Source: Gammaproteobacteria bacterium (GTDB lineage Bacteria > Pseudomonadota > Gammaproteobacteria > Ga0077536). Taken from it: a DNA stretch of 64,000 nucleotides. Under the pieces are notes generated by a model that worked only from the letters and a program-made list of their open reading frames with translations, searched no databases and had not been told where the DNA came from. Shown here one piece after another: positions 11,405-62,159 of this stretch; the first letter of the stretch is position 1; the number at the start of each line of letters is the position of its first letter. The DNA is taken from NCBI GenBank assembly GCA_965216305.1, contig OZ244144.1, positions 2,036,248-2,100,247 of the forward strand, read 5' to 3'. The position numbers and the translations under genes are program-made.

Positions 11405-11409
11405 CGGGA

Positions 11410-29751: not shown

Positions 29752-29836
29752 ATAATGTGATTCGACTAACATACACCGCAGCGCAGCACGGACGGTTGTC
29801 GGTGCGGGACAATATTGAAACGTAATCGATAGCATC

Positions 29837-31294
29837 ATGAATCTACTACCCGTAATTCTCGCTGGTGGCGGCGGCACGCGCTTGTGGCCGCTCTCGCGCG
29901 GGCACTTTCCAAAACAGTTTCTGTCCGTGGTTGGCGATAAGACGCTGCTGCAGGACACGCTCATCCGCATGCCGCGCCTCGATGGGGCCAGCGAACAGCC
30001 ATTTACCGTGCAGGCGCCGATGGTGGTGTGTAATGAGGAACACCGCTTTATGGTTGGCGAGCAGGCACGCCAGATTGGCTGCGATCTCACCTCTATCGTG
30101 CTCGAACCGATCGGACGCAACACCGCCCCGGCGCTCACGTGCGCCGCGCTGCTGGCGCTGGCCGGCGGCGACGATCCCCTGCTGCTCATGATGCCGGCGG
30201 ATCAGCTTATCGCCGACCTCGACGGCTTTCGCCGTGCGGTGGCAGCCGGCGCCGCGGCGGCCGAGGCGGGCGCGCTCGTCACGTTTGGCGTGGTGCCGGA
30301 CAAACCGGAAACGGGTTACGGCTATATCCAGCTGGGTGATGCGATCGAAACCGGCGCGCTGCCGGCGAACGATATCGCGGCGTTCCGCGAGAAGCCCGAC
30401 CTGGACACCGCAACCGCCTACCTCGCCGACGGCGGCTACCGCTGGAACGCGGGGATATTTCTCATGCGTGCGAGCGTGTGGCTGCGCGCGATTGAAACGT
30501 TCAATGCCGACATCGCCGCCGCGAGCCGGCGTGCCGTGGACACGGCCACGGCGGACGGCGAATTCACCCGGCTCGGCAAAGACGCGTTCAGCGCGTGCCC
30601 GAGCGACTCGATCGATTATGCCGTGATGGAACCCGTGGTTGCCGCCGATGGCTTCACCGGTGCGGTGATATCACTCGACGTCGGCTGGTCTGATGTTGGC
30701 TCGTGGTCGAGCATGTGGGAAGTATCGGCACGGGACGGGGAGGGCAACGTCACCCGTGGCGATGTCCATCTTGAAGACTGCGCCGGCAATGTCGTCATCG
30801 CGGAACACCGGCTCGTGGCCGGGCTCGGTTGCGACGACCTCGTGATCGTGGAAACGCCCGATGCGGTGATGGTCGCAAAAAAGGATCGCGCCCAGGACGT
30901 AAAGAAAATCGTCGACTGGCTGAACGAACAGGGCCGCGAGGAACGCTTGTTCCATCGCCGCGTATATCGCCCTTGGGGCAGCTACGAAGGCGTGGACGCC
31001 GGTGCCCGGTTCCAGGTGAAACGGATCGTGGTGAATCCCGGCGCCTCACTGTCGCTGCAGATGCACCACCACCGCGCGGAGCACTGGATCGTGGTGAGCG
31101 GCACCGCAAAGGTCACGTGCGCGGAGCGGGAATTTCTGCTGTCGGAGAACGAATCCACCTACATCCCGATTGGCGCGACCCATCGCCTGGAAAATCCCGG
31201 CACCATTCCGTGCGAATTAATTGAAGTGCAATCAGGGAGTTATCTTGGCGAGGACGATATTGTGCGGTTTGAGGACAAGTACAATCGGGCGTAG
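29837..31294 (+). CDS. manC: Bifunctional mannose-1-phosphate guanylyltransferase / mannose-6-phosphate isomerase (type II PMI-GMP).
   Basis: N-terminal nucleotidyltransferase motif LAGGGGTRLWPLS. C-terminal cupin with HHHRAEHW...GATHRLENPG. 485 aa. Confidence 0.93.
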   Translation: MNLLPVILAGGGGTRLWPLSRGHFPKQFLSVVGDKTLLQDTLIRMPRLDGASEQPFTVQAPMVVCNEEHRFMVGEQARQIGCDLTSIVLEPIGRNTAPALTCAALLALAGGDDPLLLMMPADQLIADLDGFRRAVAAGAAAAEAGALVTFGVVPDKPETGYGYIQLGDAIETGALPANDIAAFREKPDLDTATAYLADGGYRWNAGIFLMRASVWLRAIETFNADIAAASRRAVDTATADGEFTRLGKDAFSACPSDSIDYAVMEPVVAADGFTGAVISLDVGWSDVGSWSSMWEVSARDGEGNVTRGDVHLEDCAGNVVIAEHRLVAGLGCDDLVIVETPDAVMVAKKDRAQDVKKIVDWLNEQGREERLFHRRVYRPWGSYEGVDAGARFQVKRIVVNPGASLSLQMHHHRAEHWIVVSGTAKVTCAEREFLLSENESTYIPIGATHRLENPGTIPCELIEVQSGSYLGEDDIVRFEDKYNRA

Positions 31295-31491
31295 GGATTG
31301 ATGGCCCGGGAGGCCAGATGTGCGGACCGTGCGAACATGATTGGGCGACATGCGCGTTCGAGAATGGAAAACTGTGTGCGGTGCCGCATTTATCTTCGTG
31401 GCGCTTACATCGGTGGGATGATAAACTTTTCAAATCATTAGCTTAGATAACTTTTGGAGAATCACTCCAAGGCTGCCGCCGAGGAAACAGC

Positions 31492-32385
31492 ATGTACGAA
31501 TCGTTCTTCGGTTTCACGGAAGCGCCGTTCAGTTTGAACCCTGATCCGGGGTTCCTGTACCTCGGGCGGGATCACAGCAAAGCCCTGAGCATGTTGGAAT
31601 TCGGCCTTGCGTCGGAATCCGGGATCACTGTCATTACTGGCGCAATTGGTTCAGGGAAAACTACGCTAGTACGTCAGTTGCTCAATGCCATGCCGTCCGA
31701 CCGCACCGTGGGACTCATCAGCAACACCCATAAGTCGTTCGGCGAGCTGATTCACTGGATTTCCCTTGCCTTTGATCTTGAGCATGAGGGCCGGGACAAG
31801 GTCTCGCTGTACAACCAGTTTGTGAAATTTATGATCGAGGAATACAGCCGTGGAAAACGCGTTGTCTTAATTGTCGATGAAGCGCAAAACCTCGACGCAG
31901 AAACAATTGAAGAACTGCGCGTGATTTCGAACATCAACGCTGACAAAGACCTCGTGCTACAGCTGGTCCTAGTAGGCCAGCCGGAGCTAAAGGAAATATT
32001 GAGCGGTGCGAACCTGGTCCAGTTCGTTCAGCGAATTTCCGCGTATTATCATTTGAAGCCGTTAACACGTGAAGAGACGCACAACTACATAAAACATCGC
32101 GTCGGTGTTGCGGGGCCCCGGCGTAATCCGTTTCGGAAAAAGGCTATGGACATGATCTTCGAGGCTGCCGGTGGCGTGCCGAGGTTGATCAACACTTTTT
32201 GTCATTTAGGACTGACATATTGTTTCGCCGAGGGGCGTAAGACTGTGAACGAAGACATCATGCGGGAGATTGTTAGCGATCGCGAAGAGCATAGCTTGTT
32301 CGAGAGCAAGGCGGCTTCGCAAACTGATGTCGACGAACGTGGGCTGCACCACTTGGCTGTAACACCATTAGAGAAAATACTATGA
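31492..32385 (+). CDS. PEP-CTERM/XrtA-locus secretion ATPase (GspA/ExeA-like AAA ATPase).
   Basis: 297 aa with Walker A GAIGSGKTT and Walker B VLIVDEAQNL. GspA-like architecture characteristic of the first gene of exosortase-A EPS loci. Confidence 0.75.
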   Translation: MYESFFGFTEAPFSLNPDPGFLYLGRDHSKALSMLEFGLASESGITVITGAIGSGKTTLVRQLLNAMPSDRTVGLISNTHKSFGELIHWISLAFDLEHEGRDKVSLYNQFVKFMIEEYSRGKRVVLIVDEAQNLDAETIEELRVISNINADKDLVLQLVLVGQPELKEILSGANLVQFVQRISAYYHLKPLTREETHNYIKHRVGVAGPRRNPFRKKAMDMIFEAAGGVPRLINTFCHLGLTYCFAEGRKTVNEDIMREIVSDREEHSLFESKAASQTDVDERGLHHLAVTPLEKIL

Positions 32386-32948
32386 ATCGACGCATTACAG
32401 TTTTGCCTATCTTCTTGTACGCGCTTTTGGGTGCAATGGCACCTCCAACCGCATACTCAGATTCATCCGACTACAAGATCAAGGCAGCGGATTTGTTGCT
32501 TGTTTCTGTGTGGAAGGAAGAAGACTTGCAACTCGAAACCATAGTGCGCCCAGACGGTAAATTCTCATTCCCCCTCGCCGGCGAAATTCGAGCTCAGGGA
32601 CGGACGATAAGTGAGGTCCAAGAATCCGTGACCGAAGCGATTAAACAATACATCCCCGATCCGGTTGTTACGGTGATATTACGCCAAAGTCTGGGTAATC
32701 GAGTTTTCGTGTTAGGGCAGGTAAATCGGCCGGGCGAATTTCCGCTAAGCCAAGACATGGATGTATTGCAGGCGCTTGCTCTTGGTGGCGGGCTTGCGAC
32801 ATTCGCCGATAGGAAAGACATCAAAATCCTAAGGCGAACCGAGAACGGGCAATCGTCAATCCCCTTTAACTATAAGAGTGCTATTAACGGCAGCGATCTT
32901 GGGCAGAATATTTTATTGGAACCAGGCGATATCGTCGTCGTGCCTTAG
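32382..32948 (+). CDS. Periplasmic polysaccharide export protein (Wza-like Poly_export/SLBB, PEP-CTERM-locus EpsE-like).
   Basis: 188 aa with signal peptide. Poly_export motif (Y.I..GD.L.V.V....L......V..DG.I..P..G.I...G.T..E) followed by one SLBB-like segment. ATGA overlap with the upstream gene. Confidence 0.8.
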   Translation: MNRRITVLPIFLYALLGAMAPPTAYSDSSDYKIKAADLLLVSVWKEEDLQLETIVRPDGKFSFPLAGEIRAQGRTISEVQESVTEAIKQYIPDPVVTVILRQSLGNRVFVLGQVNRPGEFPLSQDMDVLQALALGGGLATFADRKDIKILRRTENGQSSIPFNYKSAINGSDLGQNILLEPGDIVVVP

Positions 32949-32983
32949 CCGCTGAGCGATCGGATCGTCCAGATACGTTTCTA

Positions 32984-34201
32984 GTGAAAAACCCAGCGCT
33001 TATCGTCGTGATGATGCTTTCCGCGAGCATCCCAGCGCGTGCGGATTTTTCCGTTCGCCCGTTCGTGTCTGAGGAACTTTTAGTTAATGACAACAGGAGA
33101 GTTCGCGCAGCAGGCGGCCCTACAGTAATAGGATCTTTATCCACGGCCCAACTCGCGCTTAACTACTCCCGACCGACTTGGTTCGCGACGGCGATCCCGC
33201 GCGCGAAAATTTCAAGGTTTACTGAAGACTCTTCACTAAATAGCGAAGATTATCTTCTAATAGGAGCGACCGAAAAACGCTTTGAGTACCTAACAATCGC
33301 GCTGAATACACAGGCTAGCAGTGTGTCAGCTCTAACCACGGAATTGGCGGATATCGGTCTCGTCTTAGAAAACAAACAGCAGAATAGATTCAGTATTTCG
33401 CCTAGGGTGACGTATTTTGCAACTCCGACCTTGCAACTTGGTTTCTCGCTCAATTACGTAGATGTTGAGTTCCAAAACGCCGAAAATACCGCATTAATCG
33501 ACTATTCCAGCTATTCCTTCGGCCCTGACGTACAGTACCAATTTAGTGAGAATATCAGCTTCAATAGCAACTTCTCGGTTTCTGAATTCAAAACCCCGGA
33601 CACGCAAAGAAAGACGTTCAGTAAGTCCGTTAACGTAGGGGCTACGTATCGGTACTCCGAGAAGTTATTCGTGTCAGCGTCTCTCGGAGGGCGTTTTAAT
33701 AATATCGAGCAAGGGTTTCAAGCACTCGTCCCGAATCCTGATTTCCCAAACGGACCGGTTTTTGTCATTCAGGATCTCAAACAGGAAGACACGACGAAAG
33801 GGATCCTCGCGAACGTCCTGGTCGAAAGGACTATCGAGCGAGGTACCGTTTCCGCGTCGTATTCGCGCTTTGTATCGCCGGCGAGTATTGGTATTCAGCA
33901 GGTCAACGAAGAGTGGGGGCTGAATTTTGAATATGAGATGTCTCCTCGATGGACTAGCGAAATGGAATTTGAGTTCGCAAATCTCAAGGCCGATGGCGAC
34001 GATAGAACAGACCAGAATGAGCGAATACGGTTACGTCTAAAAACCGTCTACGCGTTCAGCCGTAACTGGTATTTTGACGCGGGATATACATTACGTCGGG
34101 TGAAATTTATGAGCGGCGGAACCCAGAGCAGCGGCAGCAAAGCAAAATCTAACGAAGTTTTCATTGCGCTTCGATATCAAGGCGATAATCTGCGCTTTTG
34201 A
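32984..34201 (+). CDS. Predicted outer-membrane beta-barrel protein of the EPS locus (EpsL-like).
   Basis: Signal peptide then alternating amphipathic beta-strand pattern. Aromatic-rich, with C-terminal ...NLRF (terminal Phe typical of OMPs). Conserved position between exporter and chain-length determinant. Confidence 0.55.
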   Translation: MKNPALIVVMMLSASIPARADFSVRPFVSEELLVNDNRRVRAAGGPTVIGSLSTAQLALNYSRPTWFATAIPRAKISRFTEDSSLNSEDYLLIGATEKRFEYLTIALNTQASSVSALTTELADIGLVLENKQQNRFSISPRVTYFATPTLQLGFSLNYVDVEFQNAENTALIDYSSYSFGPDVQYQFSENISFNSNFSVSEFKTPDTQRKTFSKSVNVGATYRYSEKLFVSASLGGRFNNIEQGFQALVPNPDFPNGPVFVIQDLKQEDTTKGILANVLVERTIERGTVSASYSRFVSPASIGIQQVNEEWGLNFEYEMSPRWTSEMEFEFANLKADGDDRTDQNERIRLRLKTVYAFSRNWYFDAGYTLRRVKFMSGGTQSSGSKAKSNEVFIALRYQGDNLRF

Positions 34202-35988
34202 GTTTTACGCCTGCGGAAAAACTTTCCCTTTACAAGAATATGAGTGATTTGGACCGGGTAATGGAAACGCTACAAACTGAAATGACCTTTCGAGATGCGG
34301 TAGACAAGCTCGGCCGTAGGTACCGGATGCTGGTTGCGGTAGTCATTTCGCTGATGCTGCTTACGTTCGCAATCGCCGTATTGCTACCTTCAATCTATCG
34401 AAGTCAGGCGACAATATTAATCGAACAGCAGGAAATTCCAGCTGAATTAGTTCGTTCAACGGTAACGAGTTTCGCAAGCCAGCGCATTCAAACTATCAGT
34501 CAACGCGTAATGACCTCGAGCAATCTTTCCGAAATAATCGAGAAATACGGTCTTTACGAAGAAGAACGCCGCCGAGATCCGCTCGAAGTTATCATCGATG
34601 GGATGCGTCGGAGTATCGTCCTTGAAATGATCAGTGCAGACGTCGTCGATCCACGAAGTGGTCGACCAACAGAGGCAACGATTGCATTCCAGTTGTCTTA
34701 CGATAGTGAATCTCCTGTCTTGGCGCAAAAAGTTACGAACGAACTAGTGTCTCTTTATCTCAATGAGAATCTTAAGTCGCGCCAGGCGTCTGCGACCGAA
34801 ACCTCCTCCTTTCTGGCCGATGAGTCATCTCGATTAGCGTCACGTCTCGCGGAACTAGAGCAGGAAATATCGACCTTCAAACAGGAGAACCTGGAAAAGC
34901 TACCCCAGTTGGAAGGCATTAATAGAGAGTTAATGAACCGAGCGGACCTTGAGATTACTGACATCGACCGGCGCCTCGACGTTGCCACCCAGCAAGAAAT
35001 TTACTTAAGTGCTCAGCTGTCAGAACTGCAACCTCATCAGGTGATTTTTGTCGGAGGAAGTATCAGTCCGGCAGAGCGGTTGCGTAGTATGGAAACGGAG
35101 TTGACCGCAGCAGAAGCTTCTTATGGTGACTCGCACCCGGACGTCCGTAAATTACGCGCCCAAGTCGAAGCAGTGCGAGCAGACGTCGAGCCGTCGGAAG
35201 CCCGCAATATCTACAGCGTGAAATTGGAAGCGGCGAAGCGGGAGCTTGCTGAATTATTGGAACGCTACAATCCAGATCATCCGGACGTCGCGAAAAGCCG
35301 GAAAAAGGTCGAAAATTTAGAATTGAAATATTTGTCGCTGGCCGGTAAAGAAGACGACAAACCGAATAATCCGGCCTACATAAACATACTCGCTCGTTTG
35401 GATGCAACGAAGGCGGAAATCAGAACGCTGCGTGCCCAGCGAGAAAAAATAAATAATAAGCGTGACGAAATGACGCAGCGCTTGATAGAAACTCCTCTGA
35501 TCGAACAACAATACAAAGGAATAATACGGGAATACGATAATACGCTGCTTAAGTACCAGGAAATTACAGCGAAACAAATGGAAGCTCAGTTGTCGGAGAA
35601 TCTTGAGACTGAACGCAAAGGCGAAAAATTCACGCTAATCGAACCGCCATTGCTCCCGGAAGCCCCCTCTGAACCAAATCGAATGGCGATACTTCTAATA
35701 GGATTAATCGTCTCAATCGGATCTGGCGTTGGATCGGTTTTTGCCGCAGAGGGACTTGACAATAAAGTCCGAGGAAGAAACGCCGTTCAAGAAATATTTT
35801 CGGTGCCCCCGCTGGCAATTATTCCCGATATGTCTCGGCTGGATCACCGTGCGAGGAACGGCAAGCTAGTTGTTAGTCTTGTTTTGACCGCAGTGGTGCT
35901 TGGCGCCATGACGCTTGCCGCCATTCATGTATTTATGATGCCGTTGGATGTGTTTTGGTACGTTTTAATGAGAAAGCTATCGCTCTAG
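34198..35988 (+). CDS. Polysaccharide chain-length determinant protein (Wzz/GumC-like, PEP-CTERM-locus subfamily).
   Basis: N-terminal TM (MLVAVVISLMLLTFAIAVLL). Long coiled-coil periplasmic domain. C-terminal TM (MAILLIGLIVSIGSGVG). Probable true start is ATG 34240; 34198 is a TTG overlapping the upstream stop. Confidence 0.8.
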   Translation: MSFTPAEKLSLYKNMSDLDRVMETLQTEMTFRDAVDKLGRRYRMLVAVVISLMLLTFAIAVLLPSIYRSQATILIEQQEIPAELVRSTVTSFASQRIQTISQRVMTSSNLSEIIEKYGLYEEERRRDPLEVIIDGMRRSIVLEMISADVVDPRSGRPTEATIAFQLSYDSESPVLAQKVTNELVSLYLNENLKSRQASATETSSFLADESSRLASRLAELEQEISTFKQENLEKLPQLEGINRELMNRADLEITDIDRRLDVATQQEIYLSAQLSELQPHQVIFVGGSISPAERLRSMETELTAAEASYGDSHPDVRKLRAQVEAVRADVEPSEARNIYSVKLEAAKRELAELLERYNPDHPDVAKSRKKVENLELKYLSLAGKEDDKPNNPAYINILARLDATKAEIRTLRAQREKINNKRDEMTQRLIETPLIEQQYKGIIREYDNTLLKYQEITAKQMEAQLSENLETERKGEKFTLIEPPLLPEAPSEPNRMAILLIGLIVSIGSGVGSVFAAEGLDNKVRGRNAVQEIFSVPPLAIIPDMSRLDHRARNGKLVVSLVLTAVVLGAMTLAAIHVFMMPLDVFWYVLMRKLSL

Positions 35989-36004
35989 AACAGTGGACAC
36001 TTAA

Positions 36005-36826
36005 ATGGAACGAATCAAACAAGCTTTGGAACGAGCTAAAAGCGAGAACAAGCAAAAGCCCAGTTTTCGCGGCCAGCAACCGGCGGCGAGTGATGCTAAT
36101 GCAGGCTCGGTCAGCGCGTTCAATGAGAAAGTGCAATATTCTGACACTGCGGTTATTGAAATTGACAAAAAGCTCCTAAAGAAAAACTATATTCTGCCCG
36201 AGACAAATGGAGATGAAGCAGCAACGGCATATAAAATCCTAAGGACGCAGATTGAACATCGCCTCACCGCTAATGGGTGGAATACCCTGGCAATTACAAG
36301 TCCGGGTTTAGATCAGGGCAAAACGCTGACAGCGATTAATTTGTCGATCGCGTTAGCACGGGAGGTCCACCGTACGGTTCTTTTGGTGGATCTGGATTTC
36401 CGCAACCCAAGTATTCATCGTCGACTTGGTCTCAACGTGACCCAAGGCGTTACTGACTATCTCCTTGACGATGTGCCATTGAGCGACCTTCTAATAAACC
36501 CTGGGATTGATCGACTCGTAATTCTACCGACTACTAGAACGATCGCGAACTCGTCTGAGTTGCTGTCGTCGCCGAGAATGATAAACCTCGTTGAGGAACT
36601 GAAATCCCGTTACCCCTCGAGAATAATCGTTTTTGACCTCCCGCCGATATTGATGGCAGACGATGCATTGGCATTTTGCCCTGCGGTGGACTCAACGTTA
36701 CTGGTGATTGAGGAAGGCGCCAATACTAAGGATCAGCTTGTCCGCTGCACCGAAATACTTGGTTCAATCAAACTGATCGGGACCGTACTTAACAAGGCGG
36801 AAGAACGTCAGCCAACATATTACTGA
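36005..36826 (+). CDS. BY-kinase-like ATPase (exopolysaccharide tyrosine autokinase, cytoplasmic partner of the chain-length determinant).
   Basis: MinD/ParA-type deviant Walker A ITSPGLDQGKTLTAINLS. Walker B VLLVDLDFR. C-terminal Tyr pair ...QPTYY. Confidence 0.75.
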   Translation: MERIKQALERAKSENKQKPSFRGQQPAASDANAGSVSAFNEKVQYSDTAVIEIDKKLLKKNYILPETNGDEAATAYKILRTQIEHRLTANGWNTLAITSPGLDQGKTLTAINLSIALAREVHRTVLLVDLDFRNPSIHRRLGLNVTQGVTDYLLDDVPLSDLLINPGIDRLVILPTTRTIANSSELLSSPRMINLVEELKSRYPSRIIVFDLPPILMADDALAFCPAVDSTLLVIEEGANTKDQLVRCTEILGSIKLIGTVLNKAEERQPTYY

Positions 36827-37113
36827 CGCGATCGAAATCGCAAACTTCGCGGATGGCGGCGCAGAAACCGCATTCGGTATTTAGCAGGAAGAAACGGCAG
36901 CTTACTTGAACATTCGACGGAATCCGGAGTGGCTTTGGTGTTGCTCTTGGCTACGAGCCCTGCCTGGTTACGCTCGATTCCACGTAACTTGCGCTTGTTC
37001 CAAGCGAATAACGTCTGTTGAGAAACCAAATGCATTCGCACCGTTGCGCTATCTACCGAAGAACAGTGCATGTGAAGCTATTCCATGACCGAGTGTAATT
37101 TGAGCGTTTATTT

Positions 37114-38244: not shown

Positions 38245-38248
38245 AGAA

Positions 38249-39544: not shown

Positions 39545-39568
39545 GTTTTCTGTTTCAAGATTACACCG

Positions 39569-40816: not shown

Positions 40817-40861
40817 CTGCACCCTCGAGGGGCCTTGAGACCGTAATTACCAAGAGCGAAG

Positions 40862-42244: not shown

Positions 42245-42298
42245 ACCGGATCACTCAAGCAAATACCAAAGCCGAATTCCCTTCTTTTGGCTAGCACA

Positions 42299-42826: not shown

Positions 42827-42862
42827 CCGTATAGCCCGCAGATAGACCGGATGAATTGAGAA

Positions 42863-43825: not shown

Positions 43826-43858
43826 CAACCCCAGCACGATGAGGTGTAATTAACACAA

Positions 43859-48621: not shown

Positions 48622-48624
48622 AAA

Positions 48625-48866: not shown

Positions 48867-48958
48867 GGTTCGGCTAAGGTGCCCTTGCACGTAAACCGAT
48901 TGCTCGGACTGGCGGGTCCGATTTTCGCTATTCTAATTGAACCGTAAGATTTTCATAA

Positions 48959-52770: not shown

Positions 52771-52904
52771 AGAGTGCGAACTACGTTCTAATACCCTTAT
52801 TTTTCATGCATTTGACATAGAAACTAAACTATACTCGGCCGCTCGAAATTTCATCGGCCGCATCATTTGAGTGCGGGTACGTAACGGCAATTGGCGCGGC
52901 ATTC

Positions 52905-54161: not shown

Positions 54162-55732
54162 ACACAGCCGCCACGCAGTATTGGAAGAATTCGACGCTCG
54201 GCTGGCTTTTAGTCATTGTCGCTGCGTCGGCCGGTGCGTATATCTTCTACGAAAGCGTCGAATTAATGGTGAGTTGGTGGTCGAATCGCGAAGAATACAG
54301 CCACGGTTTCCTTATTCCGCTGATCACCGTCTACCTTATTTGGCAGCGCAGCGACCAATTGCGCAAGATTGAGTTCTCGGGGTCGTGGCTCGGTGTTCTG
54401 GTCGTCTTATTTGGCCTGTTTCTGTATTTTCTGGGTGAACTCAGCACAATCTACACGGTTGTGCAGTACGGTTTTGTGCTGGTGATTTACGGTGTTGTCT
54501 GGGCATACATCGGCACGAAGGCTTTCAAGGTAGTAGCCATCCCCCTGCTGCTGCTCTTCTTCATGATCCCGTTCCCCAACTTCATCTACAACAACCTCTC
54601 CTCCCAGCTCCAACTGCTTTCTTCCGAAATCGGCGTTGCCGTAATCCGCCTGTTCGGCATCAGCGTATTCCTCGAAGGCAATGTCATCGATCTCGGAACG
54701 TACAAGCTCCAGGTCGTCGAAGCGTGCAACGGCTTGCGCTATCTGTTTCCGCTGATGACGCTTGGCCTGATCGTGGCCTATCTCTATCACGCAGCGTTAT
54801 GGAAGCGCGCGATTATTTTCTTCTCGACAATTCCTATCACGATCCTGATGAACAGTTTCCGGATCGGCGTGATCGGTGTGATGGTGGAGTACTGGGGGCA
54901 GTCGATGGCGGAGGGGTTCCTCCACGACTTCGAGGGCTGGGTAATCTTTATGGCGTGTTTCGGGATCTTGTTCCTGGAAATGTGGCTATTGATGCGCATT
55001 ACGAAGGATAAACGGCCGCTCAACGAGGTGTTCGGTATCGATCCGCCCGAGCCTGTTGATGAGAACGCCCAATGGCGTACCCGCCCGTTGCCGGTGACGA
55101 TGATAGTAGCCACCGTGCTGATCGTGGGCGCCCTGGTGCCGGCTACGGCGATTCCTAACCGGGTTGAATCCGTTCCCGAGCGCGAATCATTCGCGACGTT
55201 CCCGTTGTCGTTCGATGGTTGGACGGGACGGTCGGAAACGCTGGAACAAATCTACCTCGACGCGCTCAAGCTCACGGACTACGCGCTCATTAACTATACG
55301 AACGACACGGACAACGTCGTGAATTTCTATGCAGCGTACTACGCGTCGCAGCGTAAGGGTCAGTCCGCTCATTCGCCGCGCTCGTGCATACCGGGTGGCG
55401 GCTGGCGCATCGAGTCGCTCACACAGGTTTCGGTGCCGGAAGGCGCACCGGGGGGCGGGGATTTGCCGGTGAACCGGGTACTGATTACGAACGGCAATCA
55501 CAAACAACTCGTCTACTACTGGTTTCAGCAGCGGGGTCGGATCATCACGAATGAATACCTCGTGAAGTGGTTCGTGTTCTGGGATGCGATGACGAAGAAC
55601 CGCACGGATGGATCCTTGATCCGGTTGACGATACCGATTGCTCCGGGCAAGGACGTCGATGAACTTGAGAAGTTGTTGCGCAAGTTCGCCCGCGATGCCC
55701 GCGACATCCTGCCGGCCTACGTGCCTGGGTAG
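54158..55732 (+). CDS. xrtA: Exosortase A (XrtA) fused to a C-terminal EpsI-family domain.
   Basis: N-terminal ~300 aa with 8 TM helices and exosortase active-site Cys motif (VVEACNGLRYLFP) plus conserved Arg/Asn positions. C-terminal ~200 aa periplasmic domain resembling EpsI. TTG start with AAGAGGAAAG RBS, overlapping the upstream stop. Confidence 0.8.
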   Translation: MNTAATQYWKNSTLGWLLVIVAASAGAYIFYESVELMVSWWSNREEYSHGFLIPLITVYLIWQRSDQLRKIEFSGSWLGVLVVLFGLFLYFLGELSTIYTVVQYGFVLVIYGVVWAYIGTKAFKVVAIPLLLLFFMIPFPNFIYNNLSSQLQLLSSEIGVAVIRLFGISVFLEGNVIDLGTYKLQVVEACNGLRYLFPLMTLGLIVAYLYHAALWKRAIIFFSTIPITILMNSFRIGVIGVMVEYWGQSMAEGFLHDFEGWVIFMACFGILFLEMWLLMRITKDKRPLNEVFGIDPPEPVDENAQWRTRPLPVTMIVATVLIVGALVPATAIPNRVESVPERESFATFPLSFDGWTGRSETLEQIYLDALKLTDYALINYTNDTDNVVNFYAAYYASQRKGQSAHSPRSCIPGGGWRIESLTQVSVPEGAPGGGDLPVNRVLITNGNHKQLVYYWFQQRGRIITNEYLVKWFVFWDAMTKNRTDGSLIRLTIPIAPGKDVDELEKLLRKFARDARDILPAYVPG

Positions 55733-55738
55733 ACATCC

Positions 55739-57391
55739 ATGCTGTCGTTCTTCACCTTCATCATCGCGATGTTCATTACGATGGTGTTGATTCCGCCGTT
55801 GATGCGCTCGGCCGAAAAATTATCGTTCATCGATGCGCCCGGCGAGCGCAAGGTTCACGAAATCCCGATCCCGCGCATTGGCGGCGTCGCGATGGTGGCC
55901 GGTGCGGTAACGCCGATACTCATGTGGGTAGAGCGTCCGCCGCTTGTGCTCGCGTTTCTCGTGGGGATTGGGATTATTCTGGTTTTCGGCGTTTGGGACG
56001 ATCGCAAGGCGCTCGATTTCAGGTTGAAATTCCTCGGGCAATTTCTCGCGATCAGCGTGGTCGTGATTTATGGCGGTGTCGAGATCCGCTATTTGCCATT
56101 TCACAGTATCGATCCCGTGCCGGCCTACGTGTCGATCCCGTTTACGTATTTTGCCTTGCTCGGGGTGACGAATGCGATCAATCTCGCGGACGGCCTCGAC
56201 GGCCTGGCGGGCGGTACGATGCTCCTCAGCATTGCGGCCATCGGACTGCTCGCGTTCCTGGCCGGTGACGATCTGCTCGTGATCTTTTGCCTCGCCGTGA
56301 TGGGCAGCATCATCGGCTTTCTGCGCTACAACACGTATCCCGCGCAGGTTTTCATGGGCGACTGCGGCAGCCAGTTTCTTGGTTTTTCGGTGGGTGTGCT
56401 TGTGATCATTCTCACCCAAACCAGCAATCCGGCGCTGAGCCCGTCCATGACGTTACTAATACTCGGGCTACCGATCGTCGACACCTTCATCGTGATGGGG
56501 CAGCGAGTATACGAGGGACGCTCGCCGTTCAAGCCCGATCGCAATCACGTGCATCATCGTCTGCTCGAATTCGGCTTCGATCACTATGAAGCCGTGCTTA
56601 TCATTTATATCGCGCAGGCCGCGCTAGTAACCAGCGCATTCGTCTTCCGCTTCGAAACGGATCTGTTCAATTTGCTTGTGTTTGCCGCGGCGATGGTTGG
56701 CATTCTTTTCGCGTTCAACACCGCGGAAAGACTTGGCTGGTCGGCACATGGCAGCCTTGGCGCGGGGTCGCGCACGCAGTTGGGTACGTTCGTGCGCAGG
56801 CTGCGGGCGAGCGGCGTGTTGTCAGACTACCCGGTGGTATTCGTCGCGGTAGCCGTGCCGTGCTATCTGCTGTACGCAATTATGCATTCAGGTCAGATCC
56901 CGCTGGATGGCACCGTCTCATCGCTCGTGCTGTTCATCATTGCCGCGGCAGCGCTGGCGTTGTTTCGGCAATCCGAGGGGATTCATCTGATCGAGCGCGT
57001 GGTGGTTTACGTCGCGGCAACGATGGCCGTGTATTACTGGCATACCACCACCATGCGCTACCAGGGTCCGTACAGCTTCGAAAACGTGTTCTTCCTGCTG
57101 CTCACAACCGCGATTGTCGTGAGCTATCGCTTTGCTCAACCGCGCAAGTTCACCGTCACCCCAACGGATTTTCTCGTGATCTTCCTCGCCGTTGTCGCGC
57201 CGGGGCTGCTCGGATCGCTGGTGACACAAAGCAATATCATGGCGATCGGCGCGAAAACCGTCATTTTGTTCTATGCGATCGAAATGCTCATCGCCCGCTC
57301 GCTCGGGCGCGAACTCGTGTATCGCAGTGCCGTTGCCGGGATTCTTGCGCTGATGACGCTGAAGTGTGGAATCAATCCCGCGTTGTTCTGA
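55739..57391 (+). CDS. Polyprenyl-phosphate N-acetylhexosamine-1-phosphate transferase (WecA/WbpL/MraY-family initiating enzyme) with extended C-terminal membrane domain.
   Basis: PNPT signature motifs (GVWDD, NAINLADGLDGLAGG, VFMGDCGSQFLGF, DRNHVHHRLL). 550 aa versus about 350 aa for canonical WecA; the extra ~200 aa form additional TM helices. Confidence 0.8.
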   Translation: MLSFFTFIIAMFITMVLIPPLMRSAEKLSFIDAPGERKVHEIPIPRIGGVAMVAGAVTPILMWVERPPLVLAFLVGIGIILVFGVWDDRKALDFRLKFLGQFLAISVVVIYGGVEIRYLPFHSIDPVPAYVSIPFTYFALLGVTNAINLADGLDGLAGGTMLLSIAAIGLLAFLAGDDLLVIFCLAVMGSIIGFLRYNTYPAQVFMGDCGSQFLGFSVGVLVIILTQTSNPALSPSMTLLILGLPIVDTFIVMGQRVYEGRSPFKPDRNHVHHRLLEFGFDHYEAVLIIYIAQAALVTSAFVFRFETDLFNLLVFAAAMVGILFAFNTAERLGWSAHGSLGAGSRTQLGTFVRRLRASGVLSDYPVVFVAVAVPCYLLYAIMHSGQIPLDGTVSSLVLFIIAAAALALFRQSEGIHLIERVVVYVAATMAVYYWHTTTMRYQGPYSFENVFFLLLTTAIVVSYRFAQPRKFTVTPTDFLVIFLAVVAPGLLGSLVTQSNIMAIGAKTVILFYAIEMLIARSLGRELVYRSAVAGILALMTLKCGINPALF

Positions 57392-57517
57392 TCGTTCGCC
57401 ACGGCGCAGGCCCATATTAGAACGCTCGTTCGACAGCGAAACCCCGGTGTTTTTTTAGCAGCCACGCATCGCATCGAGTAGAATCCGCGCGTCCACATTC
57501 CAATCGGCAACAGGTTC

Positions 57518-58609
57518 ATGACGAAGAAAATCGCACTCATCACCGGAGTCACCGGCCAGGACGGCGCCTACCTGTCGGAGTTTCTGATCAAAAAAGGTTA
57601 CGAGGTGCACGGTATCAAGCGCCGCTCATCAAGCTTTAATACAAATCGAATCGACCATCTCTACCAGGATCCGCACACCGCGAATGCGAATTTCGTGCTC
57701 CATTACGGTGATCTCACCGACGCGACGAATCTGATCCGGATTGTGCAGGAAGTGCAACCGGACGAAATTTACAACCTCGCGGCCCAGAGTCACGTGGCGG
57801 TCTCGTTCGAAACACCGGAATACACCGCGAACGCCGATGCGCTCGGCACGCTGCGATTGCTCGAGGCGATCCGGATCCTCGGGCGCGAAGAACAAACCCG
57901 TTTTTACCAGGCGTCCACGAGCGAAATGTACGGTGCCGTACGCGAAGTGCCGCAAACGGAATCCACGCCGTTCTATCCGCGCAGCCCGTATGGCGCAGCG
58001 AAGGTTTATGCCTACTGGATTTGCGTGAACTACCGCGAGGCCTACAACATGTTTTGCTGTAACGGGATCCTGTTCAATCATGAATCCCCGATCCGGGGTG
58101 AGACGTTCGTTACCCGTAAAATCACGCGGGCCGCGGCGCGGATCAGCCTTGGACTGCAGGACATTCTGTATCTCGGCAACATGGATTCGCTGCGCGACTG
58201 GGGCCATGCCCGCGATTACGTCGAAGCGATGTGGCTGATGCTGCAACAGGACGAGCCGGACGACTACGTCGTGGCCACCGGCAAACAGGTTTCCGTGCGC
58301 GATTTTGCGGAAATGGCGTTTGCGGAAGTGGGGATCCGGATCGAATGGCGCGGCGAAGGGGTGAAAGAAGAGGGCGTTGATGCCAAGACCGGGATCGTCC
58401 GGATAGCGGTCGACCCGCGCTATTTTCGCCCGACGGAAGTTGAAACGCTGCTGGGGGATCCGAGTAAGGCGCAGGAAAAACTCGGCTGGCGCGCGCGGAC
58501 GTCGCTGTCGGTGATGGTGAAGGAAATGATGGCCGACGACGTGAATGGCGCGGAGAAAGACGAGATGCTCCGCCGTGAAGGCTTCCAGACGTTCGACTAT
58601 TTCGAGTAA
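57518..58609 (+). CDS. gmd: GDP-mannose 4,6-dehydratase.
   Basis: N-terminal [28 protein letters not shown] and active-site STSEMYG plus Yxxx K region. 363 aa. Confidence 0.95.
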
Positions 58610-58616
58610 GCATACG

Positions 58617-59564
58617 ATGAAAAAATCGGATCCCGTTCTTATCGCCGGCGCCGGCGGCATGGTGGGTGCGGCAATTAAGCGCAAACTCGAAGCCGACGGG
58701 TTCACGAACCTGCTCACGCCGCGTCACGCCGAGCTCGACCTCTGCGACACGCGCGCGGTTGATGCCTACCTGCGCGAACACCGTCCGCGCGGAGTCTATG
58801 TGGCCGCGGCGAAAGTCGGCGGCATCCACGCCAATAACACGTACGCGGCAGACTTCATCTACGACAACCTGATGATTGAAGCGAACCTGATCAAGGGCGC
58901 GCATGATGTTGGCGTGGAGAAACTGCTGTTCCTCGGCAGCACTTGTATCTATCCGAAAATGAGCTCGCAGCCGATCAGGGAAGACTATTTGCTCACCGGC
59001 CCGCTCGAACCCACGAACGAGTGGTATGCCGTGGCGAAGATCGCCGGCATCAAATTGTGCCAGGCATTCCGGCGGCAGCACGGCGACCGGTTTATTTGCG
59101 CCATGCCCACGAATCTTTACGGACAAAACGACAGCTTCGATCTCGAGAACTCGCACGTACTGCCGGCGCTGATGCGGAAATTCCACGAAGCGAGGGAAGC
59201 GGGCGCGCCATCGGTCACGGTGTGGGGCAGTGGCGCGCCGCTGCGCGAATTCCTGCACGTCGACGACTGCGCCGCCGCGTGCACGTTTTTGATGCAAAAC
59301 TACGATGAACCTGAAATCGTGAACATCGGGGTGGGCCACGACATTTCCATTCTCGACCTCGCCCACCTCATCCGCGAGATCGTCGGTTTTGAAGGGGAAT
59401 TGCATTTCGATGCTTCAAAGCCCGACGGTACCCCGCGCAAGCTCGTCGATGTTACGAAAATCACGGAACTTGGCTGGCGCGCGAACATCGAACTTCGCGA
59501 CGGCATAGCGGCAACGTATGCCTGGTACCGCGAGGCCCTGCGCGACGGCAGCGTGCGGCAGTAG
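58617..59564 (+). CDS. fcl: GDP-L-fucose synthase (GDP-4-keto-6-deoxymannose 3,5-epimerase/4-reductase).
   Basis: Trimmed to ATG 58617 (MKKSDPVLIAGAGGMVGAAI). SDR-extended fold with STCIYP and YAVAK motifs. Directly follows gmd. Confidence 0.92.
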   Translation: MKKSDPVLIAGAGGMVGAAIKRKLEADGFTNLLTPRHAELDLCDTRAVDAYLREHRPRGVYVAAAKVGGIHANNTYAADFIYDNLMIEANLIKGAHDVGVEKLLFLGSTCIYPKMSSQPIREDYLLTGPLEPTNEWYAVAKIAGIKLCQAFRRQHGDRFICAMPTNLYGQNDSFDLENSHVLPALMRKFHEAREAGAPSVTVWGSGAPLREFLHVDDCAAACTFLMQNYDEPEIVNIGVGHDISILDLAHLIREIVGFEGELHFDASKPDGTPRKLVDVTKITELGWRANIELRDGIAATYAWYREALRDGSVRQ

Positions 59565-59756
59565 CCCACGCGCTGATCCGCGCATCCGGCTCAGGTCGGG
59601 CGCGCGGGGAACGCCATACCCTGGCAAGACCAATGTCAGCGGCTGTTCCCGATTCCACGGGCTGCAGGCGGTGATTGCGAACATTGTTACAGTTTTTTCA
59701 TCTGTGCCGCGTTAAAATCGCGCGCAATTTGCAGCGTTTACACAACGGAATTCCCT

Positions 59757-62147
59757 ATGAGATACATTCGTACAGTCCTGACCCTCGGCGTACTCGCATT
59801 GCTCGTCGCCTGTGGTGGAGCCGAGGATCGCAAAGCGGCACACATGGAGAAAGGTCAGGAAATGTTCGATGCGGGTAACTACGAGAAAGCCCGCCTCGAG
59901 TTCAAGAACGTCCTGCAGATCGACCCGAAAGACATTCCCGCCCGTTACGCCCTCGCCCAGACGCTCGAGAAAACCCAGAACTGGCGCGGCGCGGCCGGAC
60001 ACTATCTCGCCGTCCTCGAGGCAGACCCCACTCATCGCGACGCCCTGTCGCGCATGGGGCAGATTTACCTGCTCGGGCGCAACCTTGAAAAGGCCACAGA
60101 GCACGCGGAAAAGCTGCTGGGCCAGGATCCGAACGACGCCGACGGCCTCACCCTGCGCGCCGGCGTGCGCGCGGTTGAGAAAAATCTGGACGGGGCAAAA
60201 ACCGACGTCCTGCAGGCGCTGGAACACACGCCTGGTCACGGTAACGCCTCGGCGCTGCTCGCCTCCCTGTATCTGCGCGAAGGCGATTCGGCGAAGAGTA
60301 TCGAAACGCTCGAGACGGCGCTGGCAACGGATCCGGGTAATGCGACGATCCGCACCTTGCTCGCCCGGGTGCACACCCAGCTCGGTAATAACGATGAGGC
60401 GGCAACACTTTACGCCGACATCATCGCGCAGGAACCGGACGTGCTCGCGCATCGGCTCAGACTCGCGAATTTCCATGTCGCCGTGGAGCAACTCGACGAA
60501 GCCGAGACCGTGCTGAAACAGGCGATTGCCGAAGTCGAGGATGTGAATGCGAAGCTTGCCTACGCGGAATTCCTCGCCAAAAACCGCAGTGCGCAGCGGG
60601 CTGCCGACGAACTGAACGCGATGATCGAGGCCGAACCGGCTGAATACCGTCTGCGCTTCGCGCTCGGCAAGCTGTACGAAGTGGCGAACGATATGAACGA
60701 AGCGAAGCGGATTTACACGGACATCCTCGAGCGTACGCAAAGCGAGGACGAAAATCCGAATGCACTGGTCGCGAAAACCCGCCTCGCCGTCGTCGAAACC
60801 CGCCTTGGTGATCGCGATACCGCGCGCACCCTGGTTGAGGAGGTGCTGGCGGAAAACCCGCGCGATCAGGAGGCTCTGAAGTTGCGCGGCACCCTGTCGC
60901 TGGCTAACGGGGATGCCACGGCCGCCATCGCGGATTACCGCGCGGCGCTGCGTGACGATGCGAACAATGTAGAACTCTTGCGTCTGCTCGCGCGCGCCCA
61001 TCTCGCGAACGAGGAAATCGAACTCGCGAAAGACACCTTGCTCAAGGGCATCGAGGCCGATCAGACCGCCATCGCGCTGCGCGCCGACCTCGTCAATATC
61101 TACTCCCGGCAGCAGGAGCTCGACAACGCACTCGCGCAGCTCGAAGCCATTGCGAAATTGCAACCGACGAATGCGCAGTCCTATGAAGGCATTTTCCGTA
61201 TCCACACGCATCGCAAGGAGTGGGACAAGGCGCTGGCGGTGACGGAACGTATCAAGGCAACGTTTCCGGATCAGCCCACGGGCTTCTACCTTGCCGGTCT
61301 CGTCTACCAGGCGCAGCAGAAATTACCCGAGAGTATCGAGCAGTTCGAATCCGCGCTCGCGGTATCGCCCGATGCCGTGCAACCGCTGTCGCAGTTGATC
61401 AAGAGTCATCTTGCGCTCGACCAGCGTGACGTGGCGGAGCAGCGCTTGCTCGATGTGGTGGAGCGTAACGAAAAGAACTTCGTCGCCTACAACCTGTTCG
61501 GTGAGCTGAAGCTCGCGGCAAAGCAGCTGGAGGAGGCGAAAACCGCATTCAACAAGGCGATCGAGCTGAATCCGAAATGGGCGATCCCGTATCGTAATCT
61601 GGCCAGCGTACAGATCTCGGAAGAGCAGACCGACGCCGCGATCGAGACGATGGAAAAAGGCATCGAGGCGACGGACGGATCGGCGTTGCTCGTCACGGGA
61701 CTCGCCGCCTACCTCGAACGCACGGGCAAGCTTGATTCTGCGATCGAGCAATACCGCAAGCTGCTGGTCGACAGCCCGGATTCGACGCTGGCGGTGAACA
61801 ATCTTGCGATGCTGCTCATCGAATACAAGGACGATGAGGCAAGCCGCGACGAAGCGCGTGAGCTCGCCCGGACGCTGGAGACTTCCACGAACGCGGCGTA
61901 TCTCGATACGTTCGGTTGGGTAGAGTACAAGTTTGGCGAATACGGCCGCGCCATCGAGGCGCTGGAGAAAGCAGTGGCCGTAGCGCCGAATGCCGCGATC
62001 ATGCGCTACCACCTCGGCATGGCTTACATGGCGCAGGGTAACGAAGTGCTCGCGAAGGACAATCTCACCCAGGCGATCGAAGCGAACGTGGAATTTCGTG
62101 GCCTCGACGAAGCGAAATCCACGCTCGCGGAAATCGACGCGGGCTAA
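59757..62147 (+). CDS. prsT: PEP-CTERM system TPR-repeat lipoprotein (PrsT-like).
   Basis: Lipoprotein signal MRYIRTVLTLGVLALLVACGG, then about 20 TPR repeats over 796 aa. Located at the end of an XrtA locus, as is typical for PrsT. Confidence 0.8.
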   Translation: MRYIRTVLTLGVLALLVACGGAEDRKAAHMEKGQEMFDAGNYEKARLEFKNVLQIDPKDIPARYALAQTLEKTQNWRGAAGHYLAVLEADPTHRDALSRMGQIYLLGRNLEKATEHAEKLLGQDPNDADGLTLRAGVRAVEKNLDGAKTDVLQALEHTPGHGNASALLASLYLREGDSAKSIETLETALATDPGNATIRTLLARVHTQLGNNDEAATLYADIIAQEPDVLAHRLRLANFHVAVEQLDEAETVLKQAIAEVEDVNAKLAYAEFLAKNRSAQRAADELNAMIEAEPAEYRLRFALGKLYEVANDMNEAKRIYTDILERTQSEDENPNALVAKTRLAVVETRLGDRDTARTLVEEVLAENPRDQEALKLRGTLSLANGDATAAIADYRAALRDDANNVELLRLLARAHLANEEIELAKDTLLKGIEADQTAIALRADLVNIYSRQQELDNALAQLEAIAKLQPTNAQSYEGIFRIHTHRKEWDKALAVTERIKATFPDQPTGFYLAGLVYQAQQKLPESIEQFESALAVSPDAVQPLSQLIKSHLALDQRDVAEQRLLDVVERNEKNFVAYNLFGELKLAAKQLEEAKTAFNKAIELNPKWAIPYRNLASVQISEEQTDAAIETMEKGIEATDGSALLVTGLAAYLERTGKLDSAIEQYRKLLVDSPDSTLAVNNLAMLLIEYKDDEASRDEARELARTLETSTNAAYLDTFGWVEYKFGEYGRAIEALEKAVAVAPNAAIMRYHLGMAYMAQGNEVLAKDNLTQAIEANVEFRGLDEAKSTLAEIDAG

Positions 62148-62159
62148 GCGCGAGCGCCG

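Follow-up and report, generated by a model that had tools for sequence, protein, structure and literature searches.

To which sorting system does a polysaccharide locus belong when its accessory genes resemble one exosortase system and its exosortase another? The question is raised by a gene cluster of about 32 kb from an uncultured gammaproteobacterium, located at positions 29837-62147 of a 64,000-nucleotide stretch of contig OZ244144.1 (contig positions 2,036,248 to 2,100,247), which we refer to as the window; the source contig is 5,845,834 bp (5.85 Mb) long. A first-pass annotation of this DNA had described an exosortase A (XrtA)/PEP-CTERM exopolysaccharide (EPS) locus with a Wzx/Wzy-dependent core. 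We assigned gene families by NCBIfam and Pfam profile scans of the window proteins and found that the general type, a Wzx/Wzy-type EPS locus with an exosortase, was sound, while the XrtA subtype had to give way to XrtD. We consider it likely that the cluster holds an XrtD/VPLPA-CTERM-type exosortase system within a Wzx/Wzy-dependent EPS locus. All features described between 29837 and 62147 lie on the plus strand, and related loci are cited by handle (L001, L002 and so on) where they need to be told apart.

The exosortase is of the XrtD type

The exosortase gene (54158-55732) encodes a protein with a fused EpsI domain that matches XrtD, the exosortase specific to VPLPA-CTERM, as XrtD and VPLPA-CTERM are defined by the names of the NCBIfam models. 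Residues 38-523 align with positions 2-486 of the 486-position XrtD model TIGR04152 at 599.1 bits, against a cutoff of 400, whereas the XrtA model TIGR03109 gives 206.4 bits against 208; the XrtW model gives 325.9 bits against 425. The general exosortase/archaeosortase signature TIGR04178 is found at 74.4 bits (cutoff 23), and 10 orthologs all keep residues C190, R235 and H256. The C-terminal portion, residues 346-521, matches the EpsI-like domain TIGR02914 at 144.5 bits (cutoff 42.8). The protein had been described as an XrtA-EpsI fusion; the fusion itself is present, and it is the XrtA half of the description that does not survive. Judged by these profile matches, the exosortase is of the XrtD type, not XrtA.

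The correction is of an easy misreading, in which XrtA-like accessory genes stand around a sortase that is itself XrtD. The ATPase, the protein for outer-membrane polysaccharide export (OPX), the chain-length determinant, the bacterial tyrosine autokinase (BY-kinase) and the tetratricopeptide repeat (TPR) lipoprotein all find their best match in XrtA-system models, each below its cutoff. The parts that had been listed as the signature of XrtA loci, namely a GspA-like ATPase, a Wza-like exporter, a split chain-length determinant plus BY-kinase and PrsT, are thus present as homologs that stay below these cutoffs. The first-pass annotation had staked its reading on the trusted cutoffs of the XrtA, ATPase and PrsT models. 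With the exosortase at 206.4 bits against 208, the ATPase at 288.9 against 324.5 (TIGR03015) and the PrsT candidate at 310.4 against 312.2 (TIGR02917), all three proteins fall below them, and the strict XrtA reading therefore fails.

Systems of the XrtA type are usually marked by a deacetylase, a FemAB-like protein, an acyl-CoA ligase, an asparagine-synthase-like protein and a TIGR03013-type sugar transferase, and none of these families was matched among the scanned proteins. As had been noted before, there is no PrsK, PrsR or asparagine-synthase-like gene anywhere in the 64-kb window. Nor did a PEP-type tail turn up in the window when C-terminal tails, the PEP pattern among them, were scanned for in six frames.

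A candidate substrate with a conserved sorting tail

The six-frame scan for C-terminal sorting tails returned one convincing candidate in the window, a 220-aa protein encoded on the minus strand at 13920-14582, with a signal peptide, a β-sandwich body and the C-terminal sorting tail AIPIPPAIWMMGAAITALVTVGRRGGQAS (IPIPPA). Its gene has a good ribosome-binding site and is monocistronic, with a 347-nt intergenic region upstream and a strong intrinsic terminator (a GC-rich hairpin followed by T8; 13845-13875, minus strand) just 3' of it, an arrangement like the monocistronic layout described for PEP-CTERM genes by Haft et al. (PMC1569441). Directly upstream, on the same strand, lies a gene for an 808-aa DUF1631 protein (14930-17356; PF07793, 636 bits; PacR-like, 234 bits, far below cutoff).

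Across 20 homologs of the 220-aa protein, conservation of the tail is far above that of the body, and in homologs 44-46% identical overall the tail equals that of the window protein at all residues but one (A-I-P versus A-V-P). The window protein scores 14.4 bits on the VPLPA-CTERM model TIGR03370, below the cutoff of 25.35, with the alignment confined to the tail (residues 193-215). Eleven of 12 members of the protein family match this model (best E 6.8e-6), and each of the 12 has a weak match to the floc protein PepA. One homolog (35% identity, E 8e-22), encoded in locus L003 between the primer and TPR genes of an XrtD locus, passes the model at 30.1 bits. We infer from the tail and its family that the 220-aa protein is a candidate substrate of XrtD, which provides a concrete, testable pair: an exosortase and a small β-sandwich protein with an ultra-conserved IPIPPA tail.

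The AlphaFold2 model of the candidate (mean pLDDT 80.6) comprises a signal helix, a β-sandwich and a C-terminal transmembrane (TM) helix. A Foldseek search of the body against the PDB gave carbohydrate-binding modules as best matches, with TM-scores of just 0.2-0.4, a generic β-sandwich resemblance; we rejected an assignment as a carbohydrate-binding module, and the model offers a weak suggestion of a glycan-binding role.

Three candidate regulatory elements were tried and rejected. The sigma-54 -24/-12 consensus occurred 37 times against 28 expected by chance, with no match in the 347-nt region upstream of 14582, and a sigma-54 promoter for the gene or the locus was set aside. A cyclic di-GMP (c-di-GMP) riboswitch has been described upstream of a VPLPA-CTERM gene in Methylophaga (PMC12530212). 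Here no Rfam family matched at gathering threshold in the whole window, and the hits in E-value mode were terminator-shaped noise, the terminator at 13845-13875 accounting for all weak matches of that region. The single RfaH ops/JUMPstart sequence, GGCGGTAG, lies inside a coding region and is at chance level.

A conserved right arm carries xrtD and an extended primer

The arm that contains xrtD begins with a WcaI-family glycosyltransferase of family 4 (GT4; 52905-54161; NF007640, 205.8 bits, below the cutoff of 276; stp3, 133.4 bits), which is 99.5% identical in the sister strain described below and is found upstream of xrtD in eight relatives. Following xrtD is a 550-aa WecA/MraY-family polyprenyl-phosphate N-acetylhexosamine-1-phosphate (HexNAc-1-P) transferase, hereafter the primer (55739-57391). 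Its assignment as a polyprenyl-phosphate priming transferase comes from PF00953 (131.6 bits, cutoff 27); the WecA equivalog TIGR02380 is missed at 167.1 bits against 326. The MraY match covers residues 3-297 only, and homology to MraY and WecA stops near residue 300. Beyond this point the protein carries a conserved, polytopic C-terminal extension of ~230 aa (residues 321-550; window 56699-57391) with no Pfam match and no known domain. The extension contains invariant residues D390, R420 and D477 and a VTPTDFL motif, and it occurs at the same position in ~545-aa proteins from 319 representative clusters.

The arm continues with gmd, for GDP-mannose 4,6-dehydratase (57518-58609; TIGR01472, 605.4 bits, cutoff 415), and fcl, for GDP-L-fucose synthase (58617-59564; NF047922, 483.9 bits, just below 500). 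The maximal open reading frame (ORF) of fcl begins at 58545; the start at 58617 is the equivalent of the gene call in L018. Last comes the gene for a 796-aa PrsT-like TPR lipoprotein (59757-62147; TIGR02917 as above, model 899) with the lipobox LLVAC/GG, followed by a convergent gene of the major facilitator superfamily (MFS).

XrtD orthologs with 55-88% identity are present in 17 gammaproteobacterial metagenome-assembled genomes (MAGs), including Thiogranum and Chromatiales. The extended primer lies directly 3' of xrtD in all 14 loci that reach past xrtD (L001-L006, L008, L009, L011-L016). A PrsT-like gene is found downstream in 13 related loci; L008 and L015, which lack one, stop within the primer gene or immediately behind it. 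In L001, L002, L005, L012 and L013, gmd and fcl sit between the primer and TPR genes; in L004 they are upstream of xrtD. Five loci (L002, L005, L006, L009, L017) share a trio 5' of xrtD, comprising a bi-domain oxidoreductase, a heparinase-like protein and a WcaI-like GT4. The genes for XrtD, the extended WecA-like primer and the TPR lipoprotein thus form a set kept together across gammaproteobacterial MAGs. Two peculiarities among these loci may be recorded. The xrtD-adjacent primer gene of L002 (L002:11581-13206) has an in-frame stop after 74 codons, a sign of a pseudogene or an assembly error. In L004, three tandem paralogs of ~210-235 aa (L004:13260-15254, minus strand) occupy the place between primer and TPR genes where gmd and fcl would be, and by eye their sequences look like putative endonucleases of the Uma2/DUF820 type.

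The window TPR protein stands where L012, a Thiogranum locus, has its true PrsT, to which it is 28.6% identical. In L012, xrtD (608 bits), the primer gene, gmd and fcl are followed by PrsT (379.5 bits against 312.2), PrsK (763 against 300) and PrsR (601 against 502.6); PrsT-PrsK-PrsR span L012:15341-21558, and L013 has the same arrangement. Since a true PrsT-PrsK-PrsR module follows the XrtD locus in Thiogranum, the Prs module, although named for XrtA, is not XrtA-exclusive. PrsK and PrsR are absent beside the window locus and beside all of its closer relatives, and among the 120 best of 3882 PrsK relatives, none belongs to the source contig. The absence beside the locus is a real lineage difference rather than a simple consequence of XrtD, because the Thiogranum XrtD locus has the module.

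The glycan cassette is exchanged between strains

A sister strain, known from a Logan contig of a different sample (L018/L019), has XrtD and ManC proteins identical to those of the window. Nucleotide identity between the two is at least 97% up to ~31240, where manC ends, and 99-100% from ~52750, where the heparinase-like gene ends; the stop codon of the latter forms the right edge of the strain-variable zone. Between these two points, at ~31.25-52.75 kb, lies a cassette of ~21.5 kb whose genes are unrelated or 25-81% identical in the sister strain. At the amino-acid level the identities are 81% for the ATPase, 66% for OPX, 25.5% for the β-barrel, 46% for the co-polymerase, 55% for the kinase, 62% for WecB and 78% for the heparinase-like protein. 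The genes specific to the glycan are unrelated in the two strains: the sister cassette encodes a pyruvyl transferase, a Wzy_C protein, a GT2 and a GT4, with neither of the sulfotransferases and no bi-domain oxidoreductase. The cassette core (32306-51333) has a GC content of 0.50, compared with 0.63 on the left side (19837-32305) and 0.58 on the right side (51334-64000), and GC at third codon positions (GC3) is 0.48-0.61 inside the cassette versus 0.73-0.76 outside. A further contig (L020) matches the window at 99.4% identity over the left junction, and the cassette type of the window therefore recurs. In L001, whose XrtD is 88% identical, the genes 5' of xrtD are two glycosyltransferases on the opposite strand, and nucleotide similarity to the window starts ~100 nt inside xrtD, at 54262.

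Two conserved arms, the left ending in manC and the right running from the WcaI-family GT4 through xrtD, the primer gene, gmd and fcl to the TPR gene, thus flank a low-GC cassette that is swapped between strains. With a cassette of ~21 kb exchanged between strains 97-98% identical and the sorting module fixed in a constant arm, the locus resembles a capsule serotype locus in its behaviour. No recognisable priming transferase is encoded in either of the two cassettes, window or sister, which argues that the primer of the constant arm initiates whichever repeat unit the cassette encodes.

Export machinery

The left arm closes with manC, encoding mannose-1-phosphate guanylyltransferase/mannose-6-phosphate isomerase (29837-31294; TIGR01479, 653.8 bits, cutoff 372.95), which by family supplies GDP-mannose. 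The first cassette gene encodes the GspA-like AAA ATPase, a paralog resembling the XrtA-system ATPase (31492-32385; PF13401, 88 bits), with Walker A (GSGKT) and Walker B (VDEAQ) motifs visible in the sequence. It is followed by a short, Wza-like periplasmic OPX protein (32382-32948; TIGR03027, 143.7 bits, below 180; EpsY, 102.9 bits) of 188 aa, which carries a signal peptide and, as its sole domains, Poly_export and SLBB (PF02563, 77.9 bits, cutoff 28; PF22461, 45.4 bits).

Next to it lies an outer-membrane β-barrel gene (32984-34201), barely detected by PF10082 (23.8 bits, cutoff 23.7) and weakly by PF13505 and PF13609. Its product has a signal peptide and ends in NLRF, with a terminal Phe; an alternative start is the ATG at 33011, at whose equivalent the L020 gene call begins. 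The barrel is the putative partner of the short OPX.

The polysaccharide co-polymerase, or chain-length determinant (34198-35988; TIGR03007, 232.9 bits, below 278.85, E 4.8e-69), has hydrophobic segments at residues 45-63, 497-515 and 558-576, close to both ends, and is encoded apart from its partner, the BY-kinase (36005-36826; TIGR03018, 169.2 bits, below 230.65, E 7e-50; TIGR01007, 98.4 bits). The kinase carries Walker A, A' and B motifs and ends in PTYY. With PF02563 above its cutoff and homology of the co-polymerase and the kinase, the export set of the Wzx/Wzy pathway is in place.

Genes of the glycan cassette

Beyond the components listed by the first-pass annotation, the locus encodes two sulfotransferases, a hexapeptide acetyltransferase, a secreted β-helix protein, a bi-domain oxidoreductase, a heparinase II/III-like protein, the β-barrel, wecB, gmd and fcl, and a 520-aa protein with no assigned function. 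The Wzx, the three GT4 enzymes and a primer of the WecA/MraY family that it had named were all recovered, and its Wzy is backed by profile matches of homologs only.

The wecB gene (37114-38244; TIGR00236, 313.5 bits, cutoff 210.15) encodes a UDP-GlcNAc 2-epimerase, supplying UDP-ManNAc. Downstream is a secreted right-handed β-helix protein (38249-39544; PF13229, 36.9 bits; PF12708, 31.7 bits; maximal ORF from 38150) with a signal-peptide-like N-terminus from the ATG at 38249. Its closest solved sequence is a polygalacturonase (7b8b, 4.9e-7), and a match to AlgE6 is weak; from these similarities it may act on the polymer as a glycanase, lyase or epimerase. The Wzx-type flippase (39569-40816; PF01943, 32.6 bits, cutoff 28.2) has ~12 hydrophobic or TM segments.

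The Wzy-like repeat-unit polymerase candidate (40862-42244; a gene call elsewhere starts from the ATG at 41030) is a 460-aa polytopic protein with at least eight TM segments. When it was aligned with 15 homologs, 33-45% identical, 10 of the 16 proteins matched TIGR04370, the model for an oligosaccharide repeat unit polymerase (best E 1.5e-12), the window protein not among them. The protein is thus a candidate Wzy by transitive homology, an indirect assignment because it is the homologs and not the window protein that match the model.

A hexapeptide-repeat O-acetyltransferase resembling WcaF and WbbJ (42287-42826; NF007797, 81.5 bits, and NF007240, 78.8 bits, both below cutoff) is followed by a sulfotransferase (42863-43825; PF13469, 115.3 bits, cutoff 27) with a GPPRSGTH motif like the 5'-phosphosulfate-binding (5'-PSB) loop and the motif RRDPKNIIAS. 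An stp1-like GT4 (43859-45106; TIGR03087, 113.4 bits, below 316.65) separates it from a second sulfotransferase (45093-45896; PF00685, 73 bits, cutoff 22; maximal ORF from 44997), which has the motifs YPKSGGTW and RDGRDVMIS and a 53% identical homolog in L003. Both sulfotransferases score above the Pfam gathering threshold and, with 5'-PSB-like and 3'-phosphate-binding (3'-PB)-like motifs visible, are predicted to depend on 3'-phosphoadenosine-5'-phosphosulfate (PAPS).

Another GT4 follows (45893-47059; PF00534, 61.6 bits; PF13692, 56.1 bits), and then a soluble 520-aa protein (47059-48621) with a degenerate Gfo/Idh/MocA-like core and an EKP motif (PF01408, E 0.072; PDB 9m37, a Gfo/Idh/MocA protein, E 0.0024). 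This protein has no family match at normal thresholds and no homolog among the related loci retrieved, being unique to this cassette. The bi-domain oxidoreductase (48959-51100; PF00107, 69.3 bits; PF01408, 60.6 bits), with a zinc-ADH-like and a Gfo/Idh/MocA domain, adjoins a heparinase-like gene in six related loci. The heparinase II/III-like protein itself (51100-52770; PF07940, 165.5 bits; PF16889, 46.7 bits) resembles heparinase III (PDB 5jmd, 1e-9). On the strength of the two sulfotransferases, the acetyltransferase, gmd/fcl and wecB, the product is probably a sulfated, acetylated heteropolysaccharide containing fucose.

Gene order and junctions

An ORF scan placed 24 of 24 long ORFs between 29837 and 62147 on the plus strand, bearing out the earlier statement that all genes from manC to prsT run in one direction. 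Minus-strand ORFs of at least 100 aa occur in this interval, every one of them inside some plus-strand ORF, and most of the enclosing ORFs are strong NCBIfam or Pfam matches. The longest lie at the high-GC end, 57-62 kb, and are most likely shadow ORFs, because the genes with which they overlap, gmd (605 bits), fcl (484 bits) and the TPR gene (310 bits), have strong matches.

Short and overlapping junctions had also been reported, including ATGA and TTGA overlaps, and these were found: four-base overlaps occur at 32382 (ATGA), 34198 and 54158 (TTGA) and 45893 (GTGA), and one-base overlaps at 47059 and 51100, six overlapping junctions in total. Six gaps exceed 120 nt (197, 287, 337, 134, 126 and 192 nt). 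The 337-nt gap lies 5' of the oxidoreductase gene and contains a terminator-like hairpin followed by a T run (48904-48921), which is a possible operon boundary; a single transcript is accordingly not shown. In scans for sigma-70 promoters and terminators, the counts of promoter-like and terminator-like sites showed no excess over shuffled controls, and the hairpin belongs to a class of sites counted at chance level.

A proposed pathway and its alternatives

For the likely reading, an XrtD system within a Wzx/Wzy-dependent EPS locus, the gene content suggests the following pathway. ManC would provide GDP-mannose, Gmd and Fcl would make GDP-L-fucose, and WecB would provide UDP-ManNAc. The extended WecA/MraY-family enzyme would place HexNAc-1-phosphate on undecaprenyl phosphate, and the conserved WcaI-like GT4 and the two cassette GT4s would build the repeat unit, which may be O-acetylated, and sulfated in the cytoplasm by the two PAPS-type sulfotransferases. 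Wzx would flip the unit and the Wzy-like polymerase link units together, with chain length set by the split co-polymerase/BY-kinase pair, and the polymer would cross the outer membrane via the short OPX and the adjacent β-barrel. In parallel, XrtD, with Cys190, Arg235 and His256, would cleave IPIPPA/VPLPA-TM-RR tails of Sec-exported proteins such as the 220-aa protein, the fused EpsI domain and the PrsT-like lipoprotein being expected helpers in sorting. By analogy with PepA in floc-forming bacteria, the matured 220-aa protein may then join or tether the polysaccharide matrix.

Several observations weigh against this reading. All of the accessory machinery scores below equivalog cutoffs, and the Wzy candidate has no direct Pfam or NCBIfam match. 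The candidate substrate stays below the TIGR03370 cutoff (14.4 against 25.35 bits) and is encoded 40 kb away from xrtD. Sulfation of the product is predicted from the two sulfotransferase genes only, and no PAPS-synthesis genes were found in the 64-kb window. Co-directionality and tight packing were seen, but the hairpin at 48904 and the six gaps over 120 nt leave one operon not shown. The cassette is swapped while XrtD stays constant, and what XrtD does may not depend on which glycan is made. None of the papers searched discusses XrtD; among them no experiment on any XrtD system and no published description of an XrtD locus turned up, and hence no reference for the locus architecture described here.

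An alternative is that the cluster consists of two independent modules, a variable capsule or EPS cassette lying beside a constant XrtD protein-anchoring module (the WcaI-like GT4, XrtD, the primer, gmd, fcl and the TPR protein). Whatever the polysaccharide, that module would either produce a small lipid-linked glycan of its own, containing fucose, or have proteins as its sole targets. The right arm, 98-100% identical where the cassette is replaced, is a self-sufficient mini-set of primer, one glycosyltransferase and GDP-fucose supply; its GC3 matches the genome where that of the cassette does not, the genes upstream of xrtD in L001 are on the opposite strand, and the terminator-like hairpin at 48904 fits a division. 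Yet with no recognisable primer in either cassette, the right-arm primer is the obvious initiator of the cassette repeat unit, and the TTGA overlap of the WcaI-family GT4 gene with xrtD, together with co-directionality, ties the arm to the cassette in this strain. We regard independence of the two parts as unlikely. Still less likely, and offered as speculation, is that the constant right arm is a dedicated conjugation device, in which a lipid-linked acceptor that contains fucose would come from the extended primer and XrtD would transpeptidate proteins with VPLPA/IPIPPA tails onto this acceptor or onto nascent polysaccharide. If true, such a device would work with any serotype cassette and would supply the long-missing acceptor for exosortase transpeptidation.

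Two further explanations are very improbable. A canonical XrtA/PEP-CTERM locus, with its PEP-CTERM substrates and PrsK/PrsR encoded elsewhere in the genome, would fit the best matches of all accessory proteins, which are XrtA-system models, and the marginal shortfall of the exosortase on the XrtA model and of the TPR protein on the PrsT model. It is hard to square with an XrtD score of nearly three times the XrtA score, passing over the full fused architecture, with a sole sorting-tail protein in the window that is VPLPA-like and not PEP, and with the missing matches to the families that usually mark XrtA systems. The cluster might also be a WecA-primed locus for lipopolysaccharide O-antigen, or for a glycan like enterobacterial common antigen, with the exosortase as an unrelated neighbour, since a WecA-family primer, Wzx/Wzy, gmd/fcl/manC and wecB are frequent in O-antigen clusters. 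However, OPX, a co-polymerase with a separate BY-kinase and a β-barrel are export machinery of capsules and EPS rather than of O-antigen, no WaaL-like ligase was matched, and the synteny of xrtD with the primer and TPR genes is kept across 13 related loci.

Other genes of the window

Elsewhere, the window encodes ahcY, cysS, sufE, ileS, an mla operon, the DUF1631 protein, a MoxR/Bat operon, ApbE and an MFS pump. An RR-PAS-GGDEF-EAL protein (19175-21340, minus strand) and an HD-GYP-type response regulator (5189-6451, minus strand) are also present; c-di-GMP control of the EPS or sorting-tail genes is plausible. An aerotolerance-like operon of the order MoxR-DUF58-BatA-BatB/TPR-BatD (21384-28446, minus strand) lies between the diguanylate cyclase gene and ApbE and is kept in the sister strain (L019). 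The mlaFEDC-like operon (10766-13697, minus strand) is flanked by a divergent second gene of the MlaC/HpnM type (9982-10623, plus strand), giving two paralogous lipid-binding proteins.

Comparison with known systems

Several features are shared with the XrtA/PEP-CTERM systems of floc-forming bacteria, for which the reference descriptions are Haft 2006 (PMC1569441) and the pepA-prsT-prsK-prsR genes of Zoogloea and Aquincola (PMC9850573). In both, an exosortase lies within an EPS locus with a GspA-like ATPase, a short OPX, a co-polymerase, a BY-kinase, stp-like GT4s and a TPR lipoprotein, and the substrate is encoded by a monocistronic gene with a long region 5' of it (PMC1569441, PMC9850573). 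The window differs in having XrtD and an extended WecA/MraY-type primer, no nearby PrsK/PrsR, a substrate gene with no -24/-12 site upstream, and accessory proteins below the XrtA-system cutoffs. The substrate homolog of L003, standing beside a TPR gene, mirrors the adjacency of pepA and prsT in Aquincola (PMC9850573).

Closer parallels are found in the Thiogranum-type XrtD loci (L012, L013), which share the order xrtD, extended primer, gmd, fcl and TPR protein. There, however, the locus goes on with true PrsT, PrsK and PrsR, whereas in the window clade the TPR protein is shorter and a convergent MFS gene follows. With the XrtD/VPLPA-CTERM families as such (TIGR04152, TIGR03370), the window shares a full-length model match, the fused EpsI-like domain and a family of VPLPA-type tail proteins; its own tail is a divergent IPIPPA variant below the TIGR03370 cutoff.

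On the export side, the short OPX with its adjacent β-barrel fits, by analogy, the class of composite translocons set out in PMC9601211 and PMC9603273 and exemplified by EpsY/EpsX of Myxococcus xanthus, the OPX matching EpsY and a barrel gene lying next to it. The barrel in the window is barely detectable by profile, and its pairing with the OPX is putative.

The combination of sulfotransferases has its closest counterpart in Synechocystis, whose synechan (xss) genes form a Wzx/Wzy EPS cluster that holds two sulfotransferases belonging to different Pfam families (PMC8205485). The present locus likewise has one PF13469 and one PF00685 sulfotransferase inside a Wzx/Wzy cluster; it differs in being proteobacterial and exosortase-linked, with OPX encoded within the cluster. 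Such clusters have been viewed as unique to cyanobacteria (PMC8205485), a view that does not hold for this locus. Sulfated EPS from marine heterotrophs had previously been reported, and the sulfated EPS predicted from two sulfotransferases in a proteobacterial Wzx/Wzy cluster may be of interest to work on marine polymers. Curated families for XrtD and VPLPA-CTERM already exist, and EPS loci with a linked exosortase are well known, so that the locus takes its place as a little-studied member of these systems and leaves the current understanding of them standing.

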